A DNA stretch of 64,000 bases from Flectonema sp. DT1601 (GCA_964019425.1 OZ025798.1:496001-560000), one strand, 5' to 3'; counted from the first letter of the stretch, positions 17,065 to 38,936 are shown. Notes: generated by a model not told the origin, from the letters alone. Program-made: numbers and translations.

Positions 17065-20000
17065 TCAGAAATCATTGAAATCGGTGTCAGTGTCGGAATC
17101 TGGTTGGTTACGAGAAACTGAAACCAGAGCGTCTATGGCTTCTTGTCCACCAAAATCAGAACATTCGCTCTTGTCTGCTATAGTTTCATTAAGAGGAATA
17201 CCTTTACTGTGAGAAGGACTCTCAATACCTAACAGTAATGTTGAATCAGATATCTTATCTTGTCCTCCTTTTCGATTAGTAACACTCAACACACCAGAAG
17301 AACTGTCATCGTCTTCACACTCTTCTTCTTCAGAGCTGGTTGTAAAGGTGCTGACAACACTGCTGTCGGTTAGTTCAGATTCTGATGAATGTTGTTTGTC
17401 TAATTGACTATTAGAAAGGCATTCTGAAGTTTGTTTAATTTCGTCATCTTGATTCTGATCATCTGAAGTGACGTTCTCAGCTATCGGACCCTCCTCCCGG
17501 TGGGAAGTTGTGTTCTCATCTGCGGGACGCTGTTCTTCAATTAATTTATTTTCATTCATTTCCGAGATGGATGAGACATCAATCGACCTATCAATAACAC
17601 ACTCAGCATCTGATTGAAGAATTGATGGAGAGGTAGCCTCAGGGACGACGTCCTCTGGAATGGACTTGTCCACATCTATTGTGTCAGAAATAATATTTTC
17701 CTTAAGTAGACTAACATCACTCTCCGTACTCTTTTTATCATCAGAGACCAGATTATCATCATCTTGCATAGACTGTTCTACTTCTAGCGTTTCTTTAAGA
17801 GGTGAAGTGATGACGCTATCAACAACGATATCTGACTTATGTGAGGATATTTCTTTATCGATAGCTCCGTGAACACTGTCGATGTCTTTTTCTGAACCCC
17901 TTTCTGGCTTAAGGGGATGTGAAGACGTGTTGTCATCACATTCTCTGGTTGTGTCTGGTTTACATTCTTCTTGTGTTGAATTACTACACTCTTGACCCTT
18001 CTGAGTTATCGGATCTAACACAGGATTAGATAATGAAGTGACTACTCTCTCAATGTTGTCATTCGACAGATGTCTGTTCTGATTTGAGATCAGAGTGTCC
18101 TCTTTTTCTAATTCACACTCGGGAGAAGATTGTTTACGAAGACCGTCTGATGAAGTAGAATTGTTATCATTTTGAATAGGAACCTCTTCGTTAATTTCAA
18201 TTACTTTGTTTGAAATAATTTGATCTTCATGAGTGATGTTTCCGTCTTCAGATTTAATAAAAGTTGTAAGTTGCTGATGACCGCTAATAAGAGTTCCTTC
18301 TTCTGGAGTTAACTTACGGCTTTCCCAGTTTATGGATTGGTCAGGTAGCGAGTTATCAGTACTTGCGATAGGAATTTGAGTATCAGATTTTGAGTTATTT
18401 TCTTGAAGACACTTCTCTGAACTTTGTTCAATGTAAACTTCACTCGTGAGATCGTTATTACTAATTGACTTTTCGATAACTATTTGATGATCAGTAACTT
18501 CATCAACTGACTGTCGGGTAATACGTTTTTCCTCAATTTGATTCTCATTGGGATCGCAATCGATTGTCGGGTAAGTATTCAACTCTTGATTGGTGTGTTC
18601 TGCTACTTCTGAATTTGAATTAGCTTCTTTATTGAAAGACTGTTTCCCCTGAGCTAAAGGTTCATTACTGTTACTCGTCTCCTCTAAGTCGATACGGTCA
18701 GAAGATTGATTCCCTTCAACTAATCCGTCTGGAATATCCTCATCGTGTGTTTGGTCATTCAGTGAATTAATTTGTGTTGTTTTGTTTACTGAAGACTGGT
18801 CTTGATCTTCATCATCACCAGGTATGTTTCTGACTGAGATGTGAGTTACTAATTGATTATCCGAACAACTGACTTCAGCAGGTGTTCCTCTCTCAGTAGT
18901 AATTGGCCCGTCGTGTGTATCATCGACACCACTAGCCTCAGCAGGTGTTCCTCTCTCAGTAGCAATTGGCCCGTCGTGTGTATCATCGACACCACTAGCC
19001 TCAGCAGGTGTTCCTCTCTCAGTAGCAATTGGCCCGTCGTGTGTATCATCGACACCACTAGCCTCAGCAGGTGTTCCTCTCTCAGTAGCAATTGGCCCGT
19101 CGTGTGTATCATCGACACCACTAGCCTCAGCAGGTGTTCCTCTCTCAGTAGTAATTGGCCCGTCGTGTGTATCATCGACACCACTAGCCTCAGCAGGTGT
19201 TCCTCTCTCAGTAGTAGTTGGCCCGTCGTGTGTATCATCGACGCTAGCCTCAGTAGGTGTTCCCCTGCCTGAAGTACTCGGAGTGTGATTTACATTATGA
19301 CACGGTAAGTTAATATCAGAGACTACCTTATCACAGATATCAGTGTTAGGTATTGCAACACGATTTGTTGTTTCTTTGTCTGTGTTAACCGAACAGCTGG
19401 CTTCAGTTGGAGTGCCCCGTCCAGAAGTACTCAGAGAATGATGACTGTCTACTGTTTTATCGCCAATTTCAGCTTCAGTGATGACTTGCAGCTCACTGCT
19501 TATATTTACGAAACAGTTGGCTTCAGTTGGAGTTCTCCTCTCAGAGGAACTCGGAGTGTGTGTAGGATTACAATGTGAGTTTAAATCAACGGGGGATTCA
19601 CAGCCAGTGTCAACCGCATGACAGCTGCGGTCATACAAACTTCGAAGTTTTGGGTTCAAACACTTTTCAGCCAACGATATAATACAACAGCTTCCACATA
19701 TTACAGACTTCCTCGTATTTATTATTAATCTCCGATGGAATCGGATTTGCTGAACTGAAGTGAACGCAGCAACAGAACCAACCAACGAAAAGATTTTTGA
19801 AAGTTGTTTTCTTGACGGACATCTAAGAACCGGACGAGACCTTATAGGCAAGTCAGTTGTTGGTGGTGCTGGACTGCTTAAAGAGGTAGTTGCTTGTGGT
19901 GGTGGTGGTGGTGGCTTTGGTGGTATTTCTGCTTTCTGATTCTTTGCCGGAACTGGATCTCGTTTCTGTTGACGGATTCTGTCTCTGATGATCAATCTGC

Positions 20001-20187
20001 GTATCTCATCATCAGTTAGGTTTGAGTTATTATTTCTCGTAGATTTGTCATACGGGACGTCCATAAATTTTACCCTCATTCGACGTAGCCACCATACCAT
20101 ACCCGCATTATGTAATATTTTGTGAACACCACTCTTAGGGTATACTACTCCATCAACGACAGATTCTCCATACCGTGGTCGTCGCAT
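17065..20187 (-). CDS. Large low-complexity acidic Ser/Thr-rich protein with a 21-aa tandem repeat
   Basis: 1040-aa uninterrupted ORF with a Pro-rich segment, GTPAEASGVDDTHDGPIATER repeats and an acidic, probably disordered C-terminus. Confidence 0.8.
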   Translation of the reverse strand: MRRPRYGESVVDGVVYPKSGVHKILHNAGMVWWLRRMRVKFMDVPYDKSTRNNNSNLTDDEIRRLIIRDRIRQQKRDPVPAKNQKAEIPPKPPPPPPQATTSLSSPAPPTTDLPIRSRPVLRCPSRKQLSKIFSLVGSVAAFTSVQQIRFHRRLIINTRKSVICGSCCIISLAEKCLNPKLRSLYDRSCHAVDTGCESPVDLNSHCNPTHTPSSSERRTPTEANCFVNISSELQVITEAEIGDKTVDSHHSLSTSGRGTPTEASCSVNTDKETTNRVAIPNTDICDKVVSDINLPCHNVNHTPSTSGRGTPTEASVDDTHDGPTTTERGTPAEASGVDDTHDGPITTERGTPAEASGVDDTHDGPIATERGTPAEASGVDDTHDGPIATERGTPAEASGVDDTHDGPIATERGTPAEASGVDDTHDGPITTERGTPAEVSCSDNQLVTHISVRNIPGDDEDQDQSSVNKTTQINSLNDQTHDEDIPDGLVEGNQSSDRIDLEETSNSNEPLAQGKQSFNKEANSNSEVAEHTNQELNTYPTIDCDPNENQIEEKRITRQSVDEVTDHQIVIEKSISNNDLTSEVYIEQSSEKCLQENNSKSDTQIPIASTDNSLPDQSINWESRKLTPEEGTLISGHQQLTTFIKSEDGNITHEDQIISNKVIEINEEVPIQNDNNSTSSDGLRKQSSPECELEKEDTLISNQNRHLSNDNIERVVTSLSNPVLDPITQKGQECSNSTQEECKPDTTRECDDNTSSHPLKPERGSEKDIDSVHGAIDKEISSHKSDIVVDSVITSPLKETLEVEQSMQDDDNLVSDDKKSTESDVSLLKENIISDTIDVDKSIPEDVVPEATSPSILQSDAECVIDRSIDVSSISEMNENKLIEEQRPADENTTSHREEGPIAENVTSDDQNQDDEIKQTSECLSNSQLDKQHSSESELTDSSVVSTFTTSSEEEECEDDDSSSGVLSVTNRKGGQDKISDSTLLLGIESPSHSKGIPLNETIADKSECSDFGGQEAIDALVSVSRNQPDSDTDTDFNDF
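18876..19263. repeat. 63-bp coding minisatellite, about 6 copies
   Basis: Unit cagcaggtgttcctctctcagtag(c/t)aattggcccgtcgtgtgtatcatcgacaccactagcct recurs at 18876, 18939, 19002, 19065, 19128 and 19191. Confidence 0.95.
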
Positions 20188-21840
20188 TTGTTTGACTTAT
20201 GAAGAACGCGTTACTTTAATAAATGTATTTCCATAATATTGATGCTGTGTAGCTTTATGTTTAAAAAAATAATTCTTTTATGATTAAATGAAACTAATTA
20301 TCAATTTGAATTACAAAATAAGATATTTGCGAAGCGGCTAAGGAACAGAGAGAGGTTTGATATGGAAAAAATAAAAAAAATAAAAAAAAAAGAAGAAAGA
20401 AAAAAAAAATTAACTTTTTTGTTTCTGCGCCGAAAATTACAAAAGAAATTGGGTGGAATAGGACAAAAGAAACAAGAAATGTCTCATATATCAGTATATA
20501 GCAATGTTCACTTGTTTTTTTTTTTTTTTTTTTCCATTCTTGTTTTAACTTCAGTAGTAGATCGTACCCTAATCCAAGGAAGATTACCTCACAGATTTCC
20601 ATTCGATTCTCAATACCGCGGCAGAAAGAAAAAAAGTGGGCGGAAAAAATAATGAACCTAAATCCCTAAAGGAATAGTTTACGTCATAAAGGCACGCAGA
20701 TCCTATGTCGATAAATACTTGTTATTTTTAATTTAATTTGAAACCAAAAAAAAAATGGAAGACGGGATTGAACTAAAATCGCTTCTCTGGGTTACCGGAA
20801 GTAAACATGATTGACAACTCCTTGAAGGGAAGCTCGGATAAAATGGTTCCCCAAGGTGTGTATAGCTTCTCAGCTATTCGGAAATCCGAATCGATATTCA
20901 GCTGAGCTCAAAAAACAATAAAAAATAATAATTAAAAAAATCGAGGGGGGGGAATCGAACATTGTTTATTTATTTATCGAAGTCAGGGGAGCCAAACCTC
21001 ACGAGGTACCATTCGGTACCATAACTGTGAGAATCACAGGCGAGAGACGCAAATTTACTAAAGTAAATGACTACCCCGGACACGGCTGCATGCACGAAGC
21101 AGGCAGTGTAAGAGACGACCGACAACGCCAATTTTTCACCAAGGGAGAGAGAACACTCCACTGTTTAGATTACGAAAGAAAGAAAAAATTGAACGTGAGA
21201 TAACTTGGAGCAAAGAGCACATATTAGTAACACAAACAAAGGAAGAGAAACAGAACCACGTCACGTTAACAGAAATAAATCGCCTGTACAGAAAACAGAT
21301 GTGAAGATCTAGTCCGTTCTCCCCTTTTTGTTCCAATATCACTATCATGCATACAATGTAGTTTCCAATATTAAAAAAAAAAAATGATGGAGGAAAAAAA
21401 AAAAAAAAAAAAAGGAAAATAACAGTCTGAAACGGAATGTCGATTTCTGAGAAGAGGAAAAAGAAGGGGGGAAAAAAAGATCGGTTTTAATGACAAATAG
21501 AAGAAATGAAACAAAATAATTAGTTCACCCAAACAATACAATGAAAAGATTTATGTTTTATTTTTTATTTTTTTATTTATTTACGAAGCCTAGGAAGCCA
21601 AAAGCCAGGAAAAGCTCAACAGGGTAACAGTTATATCGCTACCAGCAACTGTGAGACTCTCTCACAGACGATAAGAGACGTAGAATAACCTGGAACAAAT
21701 GACTACCTAAACCCACCAAGATAAGAGAAATGAAGTGTATTTAAAAAAAGTAAAAAGGGGAAAGAAGGGGGGGGGGAAAAAAAAAAAAAAAAAAAAAGAA
21801 TCGGCAAACTTCACTTTTTACTTACTAACTCACACTTTTA

Positions 21841-26639: not shown

Positions 26640-27815
26640 CTATTTTGGAGATGGTTTGTCCACTACTGGATCGCTATGTCCTTTTGCTTGTCTGTGAACT
26701 GTGTACTGTTTTTCATTCCATCTGTGATCTGGTCCAGGAGTATCCAAGTCATCAACCCAACCATGATTGCTATCAGGATGTGAATCACAAAATGGAAGGT
26801 AAGGTTTTATATCGAGGATTGGTGTACCATGTAACAAATCGTGATCACGGATAGTCAACACTCTCCCACTAACATCTAATAACCTACAGCATGACAGTCC
26901 GATGCTGTTTGGTCTATGTGGAGATCTGGTAGCAAACAGTCCTCTTAGTTTGGTGTCTCTGGGTGGGACAATCATCGCCTTCCATCCATTAAAAAAGTCT
27001 TTTCCATCCTTCTTCTTTGTTCTGTTTGTTTCTCCAGAAAAACTGAATTGAAAAACAACCCAAATTCGATCGAATTTGTTTAAATCTCGGACAAGGTTTT
27101 CAAGACCATCTCTAAGTACGATGACACCTGTTTCTTTCTTAACCTGATCGTTGGCTGATGGCTGGCGAGGTGCTTGGTAGTGAGCTCTGAAATTTGTGTA
27201 AGCAGCTCCAACAGGAGTGACAGTGTATCCAGGCATAGCTTCAGGTGTGAGAACTGTACGAGAACAACTGTTTGCCATGTGAACTGATTCACGGAATCGA
27301 TCTTCATAAGCAGAGACGTCATACCTGTCAGCCATTAATCGATATTTAATACATTCATCAAAATCAGTTTGTGTTGGCAGTCTATCAAAATATTGAACAT
27401 TTCTTGTTGAGGCCCAGTAAACAGTTCCGTCATGTTCTGGAGGTCCGCAGAACAGCTTGCATGGAATCTTATTCTTTTTTGTTTTTGGAGATGAATGTTT
27501 TAATGTTTTAACAGCCTCGGAATCAACGCTCAGAAGCTCTGCTGGCCATGTTGGGTATCCCTGCAGTAATACCCATACTAAGTCACCCACCGCGTGTTTG
27601 TACTCAGTTCCGATGGGTTGACCGAAATTCTCTGGTAGATTTTCCGTATTATACGCCAGTTCAGTTTTGCACGTATCAATTTCATCCTCTTCGTCTGTTA
27701 AAAGTTTTTTCAACGTTTCCATCGCCTCTGAAATTTGTTTCAAATCTTCCTCTTTTAACACCTTCTTCACTTCGTCTTTCTCTAACACAGTTCCCAGGAC
27801 TGATAACGAATCCAT
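26640..27815 (-). CDS. trmO: PWWP domain fused to a TrmO/TsaA (YaeB/UPF0066) tRNA t6A37 N6-methyltransferase
   Basis: PWWP: VGDLVWVLLQGYPTWPAEL. TrmO: APRQP, GLFATRSPHRPNSIGLS, DLLHGTPILDIKPYLPFCDSHP. Confidence 0.88.
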   Translation of the reverse strand: MDSLSVLGTVLEKDEVKKVLKEEDLKQISEAMETLKKLLTDEEDEIDTCKTELAYNTENLPENFGQPIGTEYKHAVGDLVWVLLQGYPTWPAELLSVDSEAVKTLKHSSPKTKKNKIPCKLFCGPPEHDGTVYWASTRNVQYFDRLPTQTDFDECIKYRLMADRYDVSAYEDRFRESVHMANSCSRTVLTPEAMPGYTVTPVGAAYTNFRAHYQAPRQPSANDQVKKETGVIVLRDGLENLVRDLNKFDRIWVVFQFSFSGETNRTKKKDGKDFFNGWKAMIVPPRDTKLRGLFATRSPHRPNSIGLSCCRLLDVSGRVLTIRDHDLLHGTPILDIKPYLPFCDSHPDSNHGWVDDLDTPGPDHRWNEKQYTVHRQAKGHSDPVVDKPSPK

Positions 27816-28208
27816 TTTTTATGTTACTTTTATGATAATATGACTGTAGAAAATAAAACAGTAATAATCAAATAGAGTACTTCACGTTAAGAAGCAGCAA
27901 TCCCGTGCAGATAAAGGTTTAAAAAAAGAAAACGATGTTATATTAAAAAAAAGTGTGGTAAGATAATAAAGATTAACACCGTGTAGTTACGAAAAACGGT
28001 GGGGGGGTGAAATCTTTTTGTTCGTACGCTAAATCCGTGAGTGGCCTAACTTTCTTTTTTTTGCTCTTACAAAAAAAAAAAGTTTAACTAGTACTTACAC
28101 TTTTAGAGATCTCTCCTGTCTTTTTCCATGCACATCCACCAGACACCCTACTGCACAAAAGAGTGCAGCTTTCCAGGGTAATTGTCCCTAAATAATCTTT
28201 TATCATTC

Positions 28209-34140: not shown

Positions 34141-36296
34141 TTACAGTTCGGGAACAACGACGATGGTCAACACCTTGTCTTTGTACTGTTTGTTGTTTGT
34201 TTGTTTGCTTGTTTGTTTGATTTTTCCTTACACATATTCGTGTTGCTTATAATTAAATGATGAACGAGCGATATCGACTACCTCGGTTTAGTTGTCTGAA
34301 CTACATCTCGCAGTGCTGTTGCCCCACACATCCACAAAGAAGGATTGCGCGGGTTTGATCTGCAAGCTGACAAAGAGAAACACTCACCCCCTCCAACCAC
34401 CCCCTCAGTTCAGTTGTCTGAACTACATCTCGCAGTGCTGTTGCCCCACACATCCACAAGGAAGGATTGCGCGGGTTTGATCTGCAAGCTGACAAAGAGA
34501 AACACTCACCCCTTCCAACCACCCCCTCAGTTCAGTTGTCTGAACTACATCTCGCAGTGCTGTTGCCCCACACATCCACAAGGAAGGATTGCGCGGGTTT
34601 GATCTGCAAGCTGACAAAGAGAAACACTCACCCCCTCCAACCACCCCCTCAGTTCAGTTGTCTGAACTACATCTCGCAGTGCTGTTGCCCCACACATCCA
34701 CAAGGAAGGATTGCGCGGGTTTGATCTGCAAGCTGACAAAGAGAAACTCCTGACCCGAAAAGAAAGAATACATACCTGGGCTTGCAGATGATCAGGTGGT
34801 ACAGCACCTGGCAGTCTGAGAGATGTGGAGAATGATCCCCAACGACCTTCACTCAACTGAACGACTAAATCATTTATAGGACGAGATGGATCTAATGTGT
34901 GTTTTGATAGATATTCAGTGAAGTTTTCAACAACTCTATCTAATGCTGGAGGGTTTGGTAGAGCTGTACCAGAAACAGAGAGTACGTCTCCATGTATGTT
35001 TACTTTACATGTTGTAATATCAAGGTCTGGTATAAATGTTGAGACTATTAAATGATCTCCTCTATGTTTTGCTGAGAATTGTGGAGTTATCTGAATTGTT
35101 TCCCATGTCGACCTATCGCTGAATAGATTCCTCAACATCTTTGACATCTTTACTATCTTCTTACTGTCCTTTTGTTGTTGTTTAGCTTCGAGTTTAGATT
35201 GGTCTGCAGCTTCTTTGATGTTGGCTTTTTCTTCTTCCTGACGTTCGCGTTCGCCTTTGGTAGCGAATCGAAGAACCTCAATACGTCTATTCACCTCATC
35301 AACAGTGTGAAGTAACTTGTGAATGTCTTTAATGTGTTCTCTGGTTTCGTCAGAAGACTTCTTCGAAGCTGCAGATGTTTGCAGCTGTTGCTTAAGCGCC
35401 AACAGATCTTTCATTAAACCTGAAGAGCTGTCTTTGCAAGAAGCTTGAACAGAGTCTAGCTCTGCTTCGTAACTGTTTAAATCTTTTTTAACTTCTTCCC
35501 ATTTTACTTCTGTCGCTTGCATTAGAGATTCAACAGATCTTTTATGTGATGTCACATCAATAATAAATTCACTTTTAGGGTCTTCGACTTCTGGAATGTC
35601 AGACTCCCGCTGTACTTCAGGCTCTTGCTGTACTTCAGGCTCCTGCTGTACTTCAGGTTGCTGTACTTCAGGCTCTTGCTGTACTTCAGGCTCTTCATAT
35701 TTAGGAGAAACTTGCTCTTCGGTGGCTTCCGGTTGATCGGCTTCCTCTGGTTCGACTTCCGTTTCAGACGCTGACAGTTCCAAGACCCCTCTCGTTGCTT
35801 CAGTTAACTTCTCAATAACGGCTGCGTAATTACGAGTAGTTCGAGGTACCCTGGCTGCTATTGCTGTAATATCTCTGGCGATATGTTGTGCGTTTAAAAT
35901 GTGCATACGATCATCGACTATGTCTTCTGTCAAGTCATGGGCGTATCCGGTACTATCTGAAACAGTACTGTGAACAAGCTCACGGATGAACTTATCACGT
36001 TGGTCAACAGGATTGTAGTTTACTGATGATAAAAAGGCAGTGGAATCACCACCTCGTTGGATAAGGATTGGCTCACCATCTCTAGAAACGTGATCGAGGA
36101 TTGCTGCACTGTACTCTGCAGCTTCCCATAATTCAGAGTCAACGTCTTCAAGTTTAAATGCAGGTGTTGCCCATCCCTTTCTAAATCTGATATGATTCCA
36201 GTATCCTAAATAACTCTCTCGGATCAGACTTATAGCTTCTCTTGGTACCTTTCCTCCCTTTGCGCGAAGTTGCTGCTGAAGTCCCCTGCGAAACAT
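34141..36296 (-). CDS. Coiled-coil protein with a C-terminal Hsp20/alpha-crystallin domain; 2 exons (36296-34776, 34185-34141); snoRNA host gene
   Basis: IPDLDITTCKVNIHGDVLSVSG...WGSFSTSLRLP...LQAQ|YKDKVLTIVVVPEL*. Splicing intron 34186..34775 (GTATGT...AAACAG) completes the Hsp20 A-x-y-x-x-x-VLxI motif. MFRRGL start resembles a mitochondrial presequence; EPEVQQ repeats present. Confidence 0.78.
34303..34365 (-). ncRNA. Single-hairpin AGA-box H/ACA-like snoRNA, copy 4 in transcription order
   Basis: UGCAG-AUCAAA-CCCGCGCAAUCC-loop-GGAUGUGUGGG-GCAACAGCA-CUGCG-AGA-UGU. The pocket is complementary to LSU GUUGC[UU]UUUGAUC; 14 nt separate the upper-stem base from AGA. Confidence 0.8.
34425..34487 (-). 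ncRNA. AGA-box H/ACA-like snoRNA, copy 3
   Basis: Same fold and guide as 34303..34365; differs from it only in the apical loop. Confidence 0.8.
34547..34609 (-). ncRNA. AGA-box H/ACA-like snoRNA, copy 2
   Basis: Same fold and guide. Confidence 0.8.
34669..34731 (-). ncRNA. AGA-box H/ACA-like snoRNA, copy 1
   Basis: Same fold and guide. Confidence 0.8.
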
Positions 36297-37371: not shown

Positions 37372-38936
37372 TCAATAGCCTCGTGGTTTCCTGCCATCTT
37401 TTGCAGAAGCACGAATCGCTCCCCTATTAGGTCCATTTCCCTTGCCGTTTCCTTTGCTTCCTTTCCCGCTGTCACGTCCGTGGCCATTCTGTGTTATTTT
37501 AGTTGGATACAGTATTTTAATCACTATTGACATATTTTATTTTTGGATCGTCGTCGTCGAAAGAAACGTGAAAAATAATTATCCATGAGAGTCTTCCCAT
37601 GCATCATAATTCCCCAGAAGACTTTAAGTAAATAAGCCAGAATGAAATCTTCAGCTAACCTGGGCAATGAATACTTATCAGCAAGACGGGGAGATAATTA
37701 GCAGGCTACATGGCTGATAAAAAGGTAATCTGTCCACTGCTGGTTTTGAAGGCAGGCTTGTCAAGACCGTCAGTAGTTAAAATATTTTTTCCAGGATTCA
37801 TATTTGCCAGTTATAAAGGTTAAGTTATAGGAATGACTAACAAGGTAAAAATTTTCACATGTCTTACGACGAAGATCAGATTGAGATAATGCTTCATTAA
37901 ATATTAATAAGCTGAGCATACCTCATAACGGCGACCTTTTCCATGACGATCATCATCCTCTTGAGGCTGAGCAGGTGCGACTTTTGCTGTTACTCTTTGA
38001 ACTGTACGTTTAGGTAAACTGTCATCAGCTTTAAGTCTTTCTTGTTGTTTTTGAATTTCACTTATTGCTTCTTTACGTTGGCAGACCTGAAGTGTGTTCC
38101 ATTCCTCCAGGTAGGCGAGGAGTTGCTTTCTTCGTCGGACAGCCTCAGCGTCTTTCTCGATGTCGGAAAGAGTTTCGGCACGTCTATCTATTGAGTTATC
38201 AAGTGAGTCGAGTTTTTCTTTGAGTCTTCTGTCACGTTCACGTTGTACTTCAGCTTCACCATGAGCACGTTTTTCCATTGCTTTTGTCATAGTAGTAGTT
38301 GGGTTGTGATTGTGGCTGTTACCGTGAGAAGCAGCGTTCCACGCATTGGTATTATTATCTTGTCTGCTCATCTTCACCTTCGTATCGTACGAATATGAGG
38401 TGGAGGGTAGTTGCTGAGTAAAGTCCATTTCTCCATCATCTTCCGCCCATTCAATTGCTGTTTTATTTTTGATAACATGATTCCAGTTACAATAGTATCC
38501 TTATAAAACAATAGTAACATACAGTCTGGGTGATTATCTAATATAGAAGATACAGTCATCTGAGATGTTGAAGGTTGCTGTGGTTGTTGTGCCTCAAGAG
38601 ATTGCTTTGCTTTAGCTTCTTTCTCAGCTCTATGTTCAGCAAGAGACTGAGTTGGTGGAGGTGGAGCAGGTGCGTCATTCCAACTTTTGTTCTGTGGGTT
38701 TGTTTGTTTGTTTGTTTCACTTATTTCATCAAAATTGTCGCACAAAAAAAAAAAAAAAAACATACCCACGCGCTTGCCGGTGGATTCCCAGCCGAAGGAA
38801 CATTGTTTGACTTTGTATTATCGTTGTTAAAGCTGTTTTGCTCGCCGCGGCCCCAAAGCCCCCCCCCGCCTAGACCCCCACCGGAGTCGGGTTTTTTTCT
38901 CGAAGAGTATCCTCCTCCCTTACTTCCATAACCCAT
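37372..38936 (-). CDS. Gly-rich/coiled-coil hypothetical protein; 4 exons (38936-38766, 38691-38523, 38457-37922, 37488-37372)
   Basis: ORFs 38721..38936, 38374..38769 and 37904..38428 join in frame through GTATG...CAG introns (SAW|NKSW; HPD-S|IEWAEDDGEMDF; RYE|NGHGRDSGKG...PRGY*). Confidence 0.75.

Follow-up and report, generated by a model that had tools for sequence, protein, structure and literature searches.

A predicted array of single-hairpin AGA-box guide RNAs within a probable spliceosomal intron of Flectonema sp. DT1601

Background

A gene of Flectonema sp. DT1601 appears to be interrupted by a 590-nt stretch that holds a head-to-tail array of a 122-bp unit, and the question raised by this locus is whether such an array is simply a satellite, or encodes small RNAs that guide the pseudouridylation of large subunit (LSU) ribosomal RNA. 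The guides of trypanosomatids and of Euglena, both of which are sister lineages, are single-hairpin RNAs (PMC2613932), and the snoRNAs of Trypanosoma brucei are described as mostly intergenic or located in 3' UTRs (PMC3273796). Since diplonemids possess many introns and an unfragmented 28S rRNA, while kinetoplastids are nearly intronless, diplonemids can show whether the intergenic, trans-spliced mode of snoRNA production followed the loss of introns. Here we analyse the locus within a 64-kb stretch of DNA (GCA_964019425.1 OZ025798.1:496001-560000; hereafter the window), with coordinates counted from its first letter. The initial annotation of this DNA, made from the sequence alone, read the units as AGA-box guides directed at LSU helix 89, and their arrangement as a hybrid organisation in which a tandemly amplified array is nested in a cis-spliced intron.

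Results

The window is eukaryotic, and its long ORFs all lie on the minus strand, with the exception of two antisense overlaps. Protein searches group the window with diplonemids: the adenylate/UMP kinase adjoining the host gene of the array was 80% identical to a protein of Flectonema neradi and 51% identical to one of Diplonema papillatum. Several window ORFs (an ALDH, a peptidase M1, a thiolase-like ORF and 37904-38500) seem to be broken near their 3' ends at GTATG-like donors, which suggests 3'-biased introns. Elsewhere in the window, an ORF at 26640-27818 (minus strand) contains both a PWWP and a TrmO_N tRNA-methyltransferase domain, an unusual-looking fusion, and a coding tandem repeat (18875-19263; 63 bp, 6.2 copies) lies within the ORF at 17065-20196. 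No tRNA was detected, and no Rfam match in the window reached its gathering score, the local matches being weak and unrelated.

The host gene is encoded on the minus strand. Its first exon (34776..36296; atlas lead 0.87) comprises 507 codons, with a coiled-coil middle and an incomplete C-terminal HSP20-like domain, and its second exon (34141..34185) adds 14 codons and a stop that complete this domain. Judging from orthologues and from its consensus ends, the 590-nt stretch between them (34186..34775, minus strand) is likely to be a spliceosomal intron of GT-AG type in phase 0, with a GTATGT donor, an A-rich 3' tract and a CAG acceptor. Five relatives of the host protein were matched, all of them diplonemid; the three that carry species names belong to F. 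neradi, D. japonicum and Lacrimia lanifica. In two transcript-derived orthologues (P0002 and P0004) HSP20 exceeds the Pfam cut-off over the region of the spliced end, as it does not in exon 1 alone, and the product of exon 2 resembles the last 14 residues of both when compared by eye. The intron ends fit the consensus given for Diplonemidae in section 5 of PMC12621601 (G/GTATG donor, CAG acceptor), and splicing would restore the conserved end of the protein. A reading of exon 1 straight through into the array as coding sequence was rejected, because the spliced form agrees with the orthologues. Moreover, two genome-derived orthologues and the unspliced frame of the window all enter Val-Cys at the identical codon, which is what a donor of GTATG type would produce, and the intron position is therefore probably common to diplonemids and the intron probably old.

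The host protein (34141-36296, minus strand) additionally possesses a conserved N-terminal domain that no Pfam family matches, as well as Q/E/P repeats (35599-35695) and a coiled coil; its HSP20-like C-terminus carries an insertion, and by eye its N-terminus resembles a mitochondrial targeting peptide. Within the intron, positions 34736-34755 (20-40 nt from its start) are complementary to the 20 nt with which exon 2 begins (34165-34184) at 15 of 20 positions, or 17 if G-U pairs are counted, which may be chance within a region of 900 nt.

The tandem array (34281..34747, minus strand; 122-bp unit, 3.8 copies, 98% matches by TRF) begins 28 nt into the intron and occupies most of it. The proposed four-copy array of AGA-box hairpins was borne out, and all four units are complete on the minus strand, each with a 62-nt hairpin, AGA and 3-nt tail in sense with the host gene: copy 1 at 34669..34730, copy 2 at 34547..34608, copy 3 at 34425..34486 and copy 4 at 34303..34364. 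The donor is separated from the first hairpin by 45 nt, and 117 nt remain between the end of the last hairpin and the acceptor; no extra copy of the unit with up to 3 mismatches was found elsewhere in the window. The predicted guides of copies 2 and 3 are identical to that of copy 1, and copy 4 carries a single C-to-U change in its apical loop (34338); the other copy differences are at 34513, in a spacer, and at 34289 and 34285, in the tail of the last copy. It is true, as had been stated, that these differences spare the stems, pocket and box, but the argument is weak because two internal changes would both miss these 54 positions about 31% of the time by chance. Two internal differences are also too few for selection on the array to be shown. 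The four copies are likely to represent a recent tandem amplification within an older spliceosomal intron. In each of the three spacers between copies, a small hairpin of 18 nt (7-8 bp with a 4-nt loop; 34651..34668, 34529-34546 and 34407-34424, minus strand) starts exactly at the 3' end of the predicted guide, whereas two changes weaken its counterpart following copy 4. This hairpin is a candidate processing or protection signal.

In copy 1, stem I (34730-34726 paired with 34679-34675) encloses the 5' pocket strand (34725-34720), the upper stem-loop (34719-34689) and the 3' pocket strand (34688-34680), and is followed by the AGA box (34674-34672) and 3 nt. Its stems, its pocket strands and the position of the AGA 14 nt from the upper stem are as the initial annotation described them, and this is the minimum-energy fold of the hairpin, with an energy of -26.8 kcal/mol and a z score of -2.96 in units 1-3 and -2.43 in unit 4; the z score is -0.69 for the plus strand and -0.40 for the whole 122-nt unit. 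All four copies are predicted to refold within the excised intron, where stem pair probabilities are 0.61-1.0.

We compared this hairpin with the consensus criteria for trypanosomatid AGA-box guides that are set out in PMC2613932. At 62 nt from stem I to AGA+3 it falls within the 57-91 nt of a single stem-loop lacking an H box, its AGA stands 14 nt from the target (13-16 nt in the consensus), and beside the pocket it has a perfect stem II of 7 bp, including two G-U pairs (3-7 bp in the consensus). The apical loop has 8 nt (at least 5 expected) and the 5' pocket strand 6 nt (5-11 expected). The consensus pocket flanks an unpaired UN of the rRNA with 3-9 bp on either side; that of the unit forms 5 and 6(+1) Watson-Crick pairs on a heterologous eukaryotic LSU, leaving four of the nine bases of its 3' strand unpaired with the target. 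Stem I may be counted as 5 bp with a terminal U-G and no gap before the AGA, or as 4 bp with a 1-nt gap, where the consensus has 5-8 bp and usually 1-3 unpaired nt ahead of the AGA (PMC2613932). The base preceding stem I is U, against a consensus tendency, described as such rather than as an absolute rule, for A (66-91%) or C, with U rare (PMC2613932). By all the sequence tests of geometry and target that were run, the unit behaves like a trypanosomatid-type guide, as a putative and unproven member of that class which is marginal in stem I and departs from it in this one tendency.

Rfam offers no family for the unit. A canonical two-hairpin H/ACA snoRNA was rejected, given that the sequence 3' of the hairpin misfits ANANNA and that the second hairpin has 18 nt and no pocket. 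A box C/D reading was likewise rejected: U14/SNORD14 (RF00016) is matched only weakly, through the upper stem-loop (15.6 bits, E 8.3, gathering score 64), no D box follows the similar stretch, and the scan of the window yielded no C/D candidate.

When the pocket was compared in three registers with three SSU+LSU sets, 12 Watson-Crick pairs (5+7) were obtained at the predicted LSU site, the next best having 7, and alternative registers were rejected at no more than 7 pairs. Eleven of these pairs are free, whereas the seventh on the downstream side requires the top pair of stem I, with which it competes, to open; the proposed pairing of 5 + 7 around an unpaired UU therefore stands as 5 + 6. An ungapped comparison with the 23S rRNA of E. 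coli rrlH confirms the earlier placement of the target U at E. coli U2489, which we take to be located in helix 89.

The target 14-mer, GUUGCUUUUUGAUC, had been put forward as conserved in eukaryotic LSU rRNA. A probe placed immediately 3' of the site identified 45 rRNA loci, mostly eukaryotic rDNA contaminating prokaryotic assemblies, in 16 of the 64 parts of the collection, and no match in viral contigs. Two duplicates of one contig and 11 loci of non-eukaryote type were excluded, and 31 eukaryote-type loci had 14 bases upstream of the probe. Conservation holds for 18 of these 31, in which the 14-mer is exact, but not for the other 13 (one of which differs by an N, and one of which is apparently chimeric), and none is identifiable as diplonemid; the supplements of PMC9082867 likewise yielded no rRNA sequence of a diplonemid. 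Full SSU and LSU sequences were obtained for three loci, of which only L022, a non-diplonemid contaminant, has the exact 14-mer. Entries L010, L011 and L020 are one 14.4-kb contig in a bacterial assembly, on which a eukaryote-type LSU segment recurs in several divergent copies at intervals of about 2 kb.

Chance controls relied on a scan modelled on the description of Psiscan in PMC2613932, relaxed to a 4-bp stem I with no gap before the AGA, and uncalibrated on known guides. Hairpin and AGA geometry alone is found in 922 of 1,988 unit shuffles at -12 kcal/mol and in 288 of 1,988 at -16, as well as at 74 AGA sites in the window. Geometry alone being so common in shuffles, the case depends on one match of 11-12 bp taken from a large scan. 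In a target-aware scan that compared both strands with one SSU+LSU set, four of 2,359 AGA sites passed at 10 or more pairs and an upper stem of -8 kcal/mol or lower, and these four are the array units; beyond them, the window held no AGA or C/D candidate above background. Among 8,475 dinucleotide shuffles of the unit, 2 reached at least 12 pairs with an upper stem of -12 kcal/mol or lower, none did so at -16 or lower, and 19 reached at least 11 pairs at -12 or lower. The real unit against shuffled rRNA (n = 5,982) reached at least 12 pairs 28 times at -12 or lower and 6 times at -16 or lower, with 3 of 300 in a smaller run, and random pockets obtained 12 pairs in 57-86 of 200,000 cases. With decoy boxes (12,410 sites), 14 other sites had at least 10 pairs at -8 or lower, and none beyond the same hairpins had at least 12 at -12 or lower. 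Against two rRNA sets that differ by one target base the match of the unit was lost, and nine unrelated sites had at least 10 pairs at -7 or lower. The target match exceeds chance; the fold alone does not. Because the thresholds were set after the unit had been seen and the match was picked from a large scan, these rates are not clean p-values, and the overall weight was assigned by judgement: a null rate of 0.02-0.5%, a guess that about one in ten real guides would score so well, and a prior near 1% for an intronic repeat of this kind together favour a guide, well short of certainty.

The end of exon 1 (34780..34862, minus strand) is complementary to the repeat unit over three co-linear blocks (10/10, 10/11 and 13/15) plus a 6-7-mer. 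These blocks extend over 83 nt of the exon and 82 nt of the unit (34652-34733), where they take in the 5' strand of stem I, the 3' strand of stem I together with the AGA box, and the hairpin of the spacer. The significance of this alignment depends on gap costs (174, 50, 4 and 81 of 3,000 unit shuffles under four settings), and the exon-unit duplex, at -55.1 kcal/mol, is equalled by 16 of 1,000 exon shuffles and by 6 of 1,266 window segments, the exon end itself included; the complementarity is thus of modest, setting-dependent significance. In folds of the pre-mRNA the helix between the exon and copy 1 has a probability of 0.77-1.0, stem I drops to 0-0.07 in copy 1 and to 0.15-0.5 in copy 2, copies 3 and 4 remain folded, and at the donor, positions -3 to +1 are paired while +2 to +6 are mostly open. 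This predicted pairing may be chance, may reflect the origin of the unit as an inverted copy, or may couple splicing to the folding of the guide; intronic snoRNAs that pair with nearby host sequence are the topic of PMC10324135.

Discussion

We consider it probable that each 122-bp unit encodes a single-hairpin AGA-box H/ACA guide of about 63-65 nt, predicted to act on the LSU U that is co-linear with E. coli U2489, and that the array arose by recent amplification within the intron. The guide interpretation of the initial annotation is thereby retained as the best reading, in that it passes the chance controls and only the four units pass in the window, but it keeps the standing of a prediction. 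By analogy with trypanosomatid guides, cis-splicing of the host pre-mRNA would free an intron RNA bearing the array, which Cbf5, Nop10, Nhp2 and Gar1 would bind at each hairpin and AGA box; cuts within the 60-nt spacers would release the individual copies, which would then be trimmed to AGA+3. On the rRNA, the five bases preceding the target U would be bound by the 3' pocket strand, and the six bases (seven if stem I breathes) that follow the unpaired UU by the 5' pocket strand, a pairing that would set the target U 14 nt from the box and lead to its pseudouridylation. The analysis establishes the array, its predicted fold and geometry, and the rarity of its complementarity to the commonest helix-89 sequence of eukaryotes, whereas the intron, expression, processing, RNP assembly and the target in Flectonema sp. 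DT1601 are inferred. As to the wider proposal, that diplonemids make AGA-box guides from spliceosomal introns as polycistronic homo-arrays, its intronic-array part alone appears rather likely. A fuller model, in which intronic homo-arrays are combined with cutting at the spacer hairpins, and the end of the exon keeps copy 1 unfolded until splicing, such that folding is coupled to splicing, strikes us as decidedly improbable.

Alternatively, the array may be a young intronic minisatellite without function, whose GC-rich unit folds before an AGA and fits helix 89 by chance. Such an origin is unlikely, in our estimation, yet several observations speak for it: 46% of shuffles satisfy the geometry alone, a crude guide model gives more than 1 million candidates per trypanosome genome (PMC2613932), and tandem repeats beside and inside genes are described as common in D. 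papillatum (PMC10161547). Additionally, the copies are 98-99% identical and hence carry no selection signal, an atypical base precedes the short stem I, and a motif scan of one metagenome returned no orthologous guide, its single match being a chance one inside a prokaryotic ORF. A minisatellite would, however, have to reach by coincidence a target match that occurs at 0.02-0.5% under two nulls, in the only window sites that pass, in sense with the host gene, at a functional site that is conserved, and with the canonical 14-nt spacing.

The complementarity to exon 1 raises a different and very unlikely prospect, namely that template switching produced the unit as an inverted, patchwork copy of the exon end, which was then amplified, with an incidental rRNA match and, jointly with this origin, any action consisting of folding back over the 5' splice site. 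The three co-linear blocks, the stable duplex and the high helix probability in pre-mRNA folds all speak for it, but the significance of the blocks shifts with gap costs, and indels of about +27, -9 and -19 nt are required. Furthermore, the upper stem-loop and much of the pocket are without an exon counterpart, donor positions +2 to +6 stay mostly unpaired in the folds, and shuffling reproduces the rRNA match less often than the exon match. We give slightly less credence still to the units being AGA-like small RNAs that are independent of Cbf5, or guides for another RNA, such as an snRNA or the SL RNA. AGA-like RNAs that are insensitive to CBF5 knock-down, and so are not destabilised by it, have been described (PMC2613932), and many T. 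brucei guides have second targets in snRNA (Table S1 of PMC4855143), but the 12-pair match to helix 89 would then be a coincidence.

If the guide reading is true, the array would represent the first modification-guide snoRNA from a diplonemid and the first intron-borne AGA-box guide in Euglenozoa, as far as the literature was searched. Neither a diplonemid modification-guide snoRNA nor an intronic AGA-box guide was found in full-text searches that covered the Euglena guides through second-hand descriptions, and the D. papillatum genome paper makes no nucleolar or pseudouridine mention in the main text consulted and none of snoRNA in seven supplementary files. The reading would also predict a pseudouridine near the peptidyl-transferase centre, a site for which no guide was noticed in the T. 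brucei material consulted. Helix 89 is reported as a pseudouridine hot spot in T. brucei, and trypanosomes have 31 lineage-specific pseudouridines (PMC4855143); such sites being common, a new target is only a mild mark against a guide. Diplonemid intronic repeats that are now masked as satellites may, in the same event, conceal a snoRNA repertoire, and if the coupled intronic version were true, intronic encoding would be a mode that kinetoplastids lost along with their introns.

Comparison with known guide RNAs

The closest likeness of the predicted guides is to trypanosomatid AGA-box snoRNAs (for example TB11Cs5H3, TB10Cs3H1 and TB8Cs2H1A), with which they share a single hairpin within 57-91 nt, a bipartite pocket, an AGA 13-16 nt from the target, a 3-nt tail, repeated copies and targets in helix 89. 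The ending G-AGA-UGU is common to the unit and, by eye, to three of 60 T. brucei H/ACA entries (TB8Cs5H1, TB10Cs3H2 and TB10Cs4H3) in the PMC3273796 supplement, while the pocket pair of the unit is absent, again by eye, from the 60 entries in parts 3-4 of 9 of that supplement. By our own reading of the pockets, the four helix-89 guides of T. brucei in Table S1 of PMC4855143 are directed at other uridines, the nearest being that of TB11Cs5H3, seven bases downstream; to judge from the pocket of TB11Cs5H3, the downstream half of the target of the unit is present in T. brucei rRNA. The unit differs from the trypanosomatid guides in its target U, in having U instead of A before stem I, and in lacking an Rfam match. 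Moreover, trypanosomatid guides mostly derive from intergenic clusters or solitary loci through trans-spliced, polyadenylated precursors, whereas here four copies of one guide would lie in a cis-spliced intron. The pseudouridine guides of Euglena gracilis are likewise single-hairpin RNAs in polycistronic clusters with multiple isoforms, in second-hand descriptions (PMC2613932, PMC2784804, PMC7671301) that speak of clusters with introns unmentioned, whereas the present array is intronic.

The hybrid organisation claimed in the initial annotation is new for Euglenozoa as far as the literature reached, but each of its components has precedents, since Ostreococcus and plants have intronic polycistronic snoRNA clusters (PMC7671301) and trypanosomes have tandemly repeated ones (PMC2613932). 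The RNA class and intronic clustering each being known elsewhere, the finding would extend known biology and open no new kind. Going by the title of Chen et al. 2008, intronic snoRNA clusters reportedly also exist in Chlamydomonas. The predicted array resembles these green algal and plant clusters in that several snoRNAs share one intron and need to be released from a polycistronic intron RNA. The clusters of Ostreococcus, plants and Chlamydomonas, however, consist of canonical C/D or two-hairpin H/ACA snoRNAs in another supergroup, whereas that of Flectonema sp. DT1601 would be a head-to-tail homo-array of single-hairpin AGA guides.
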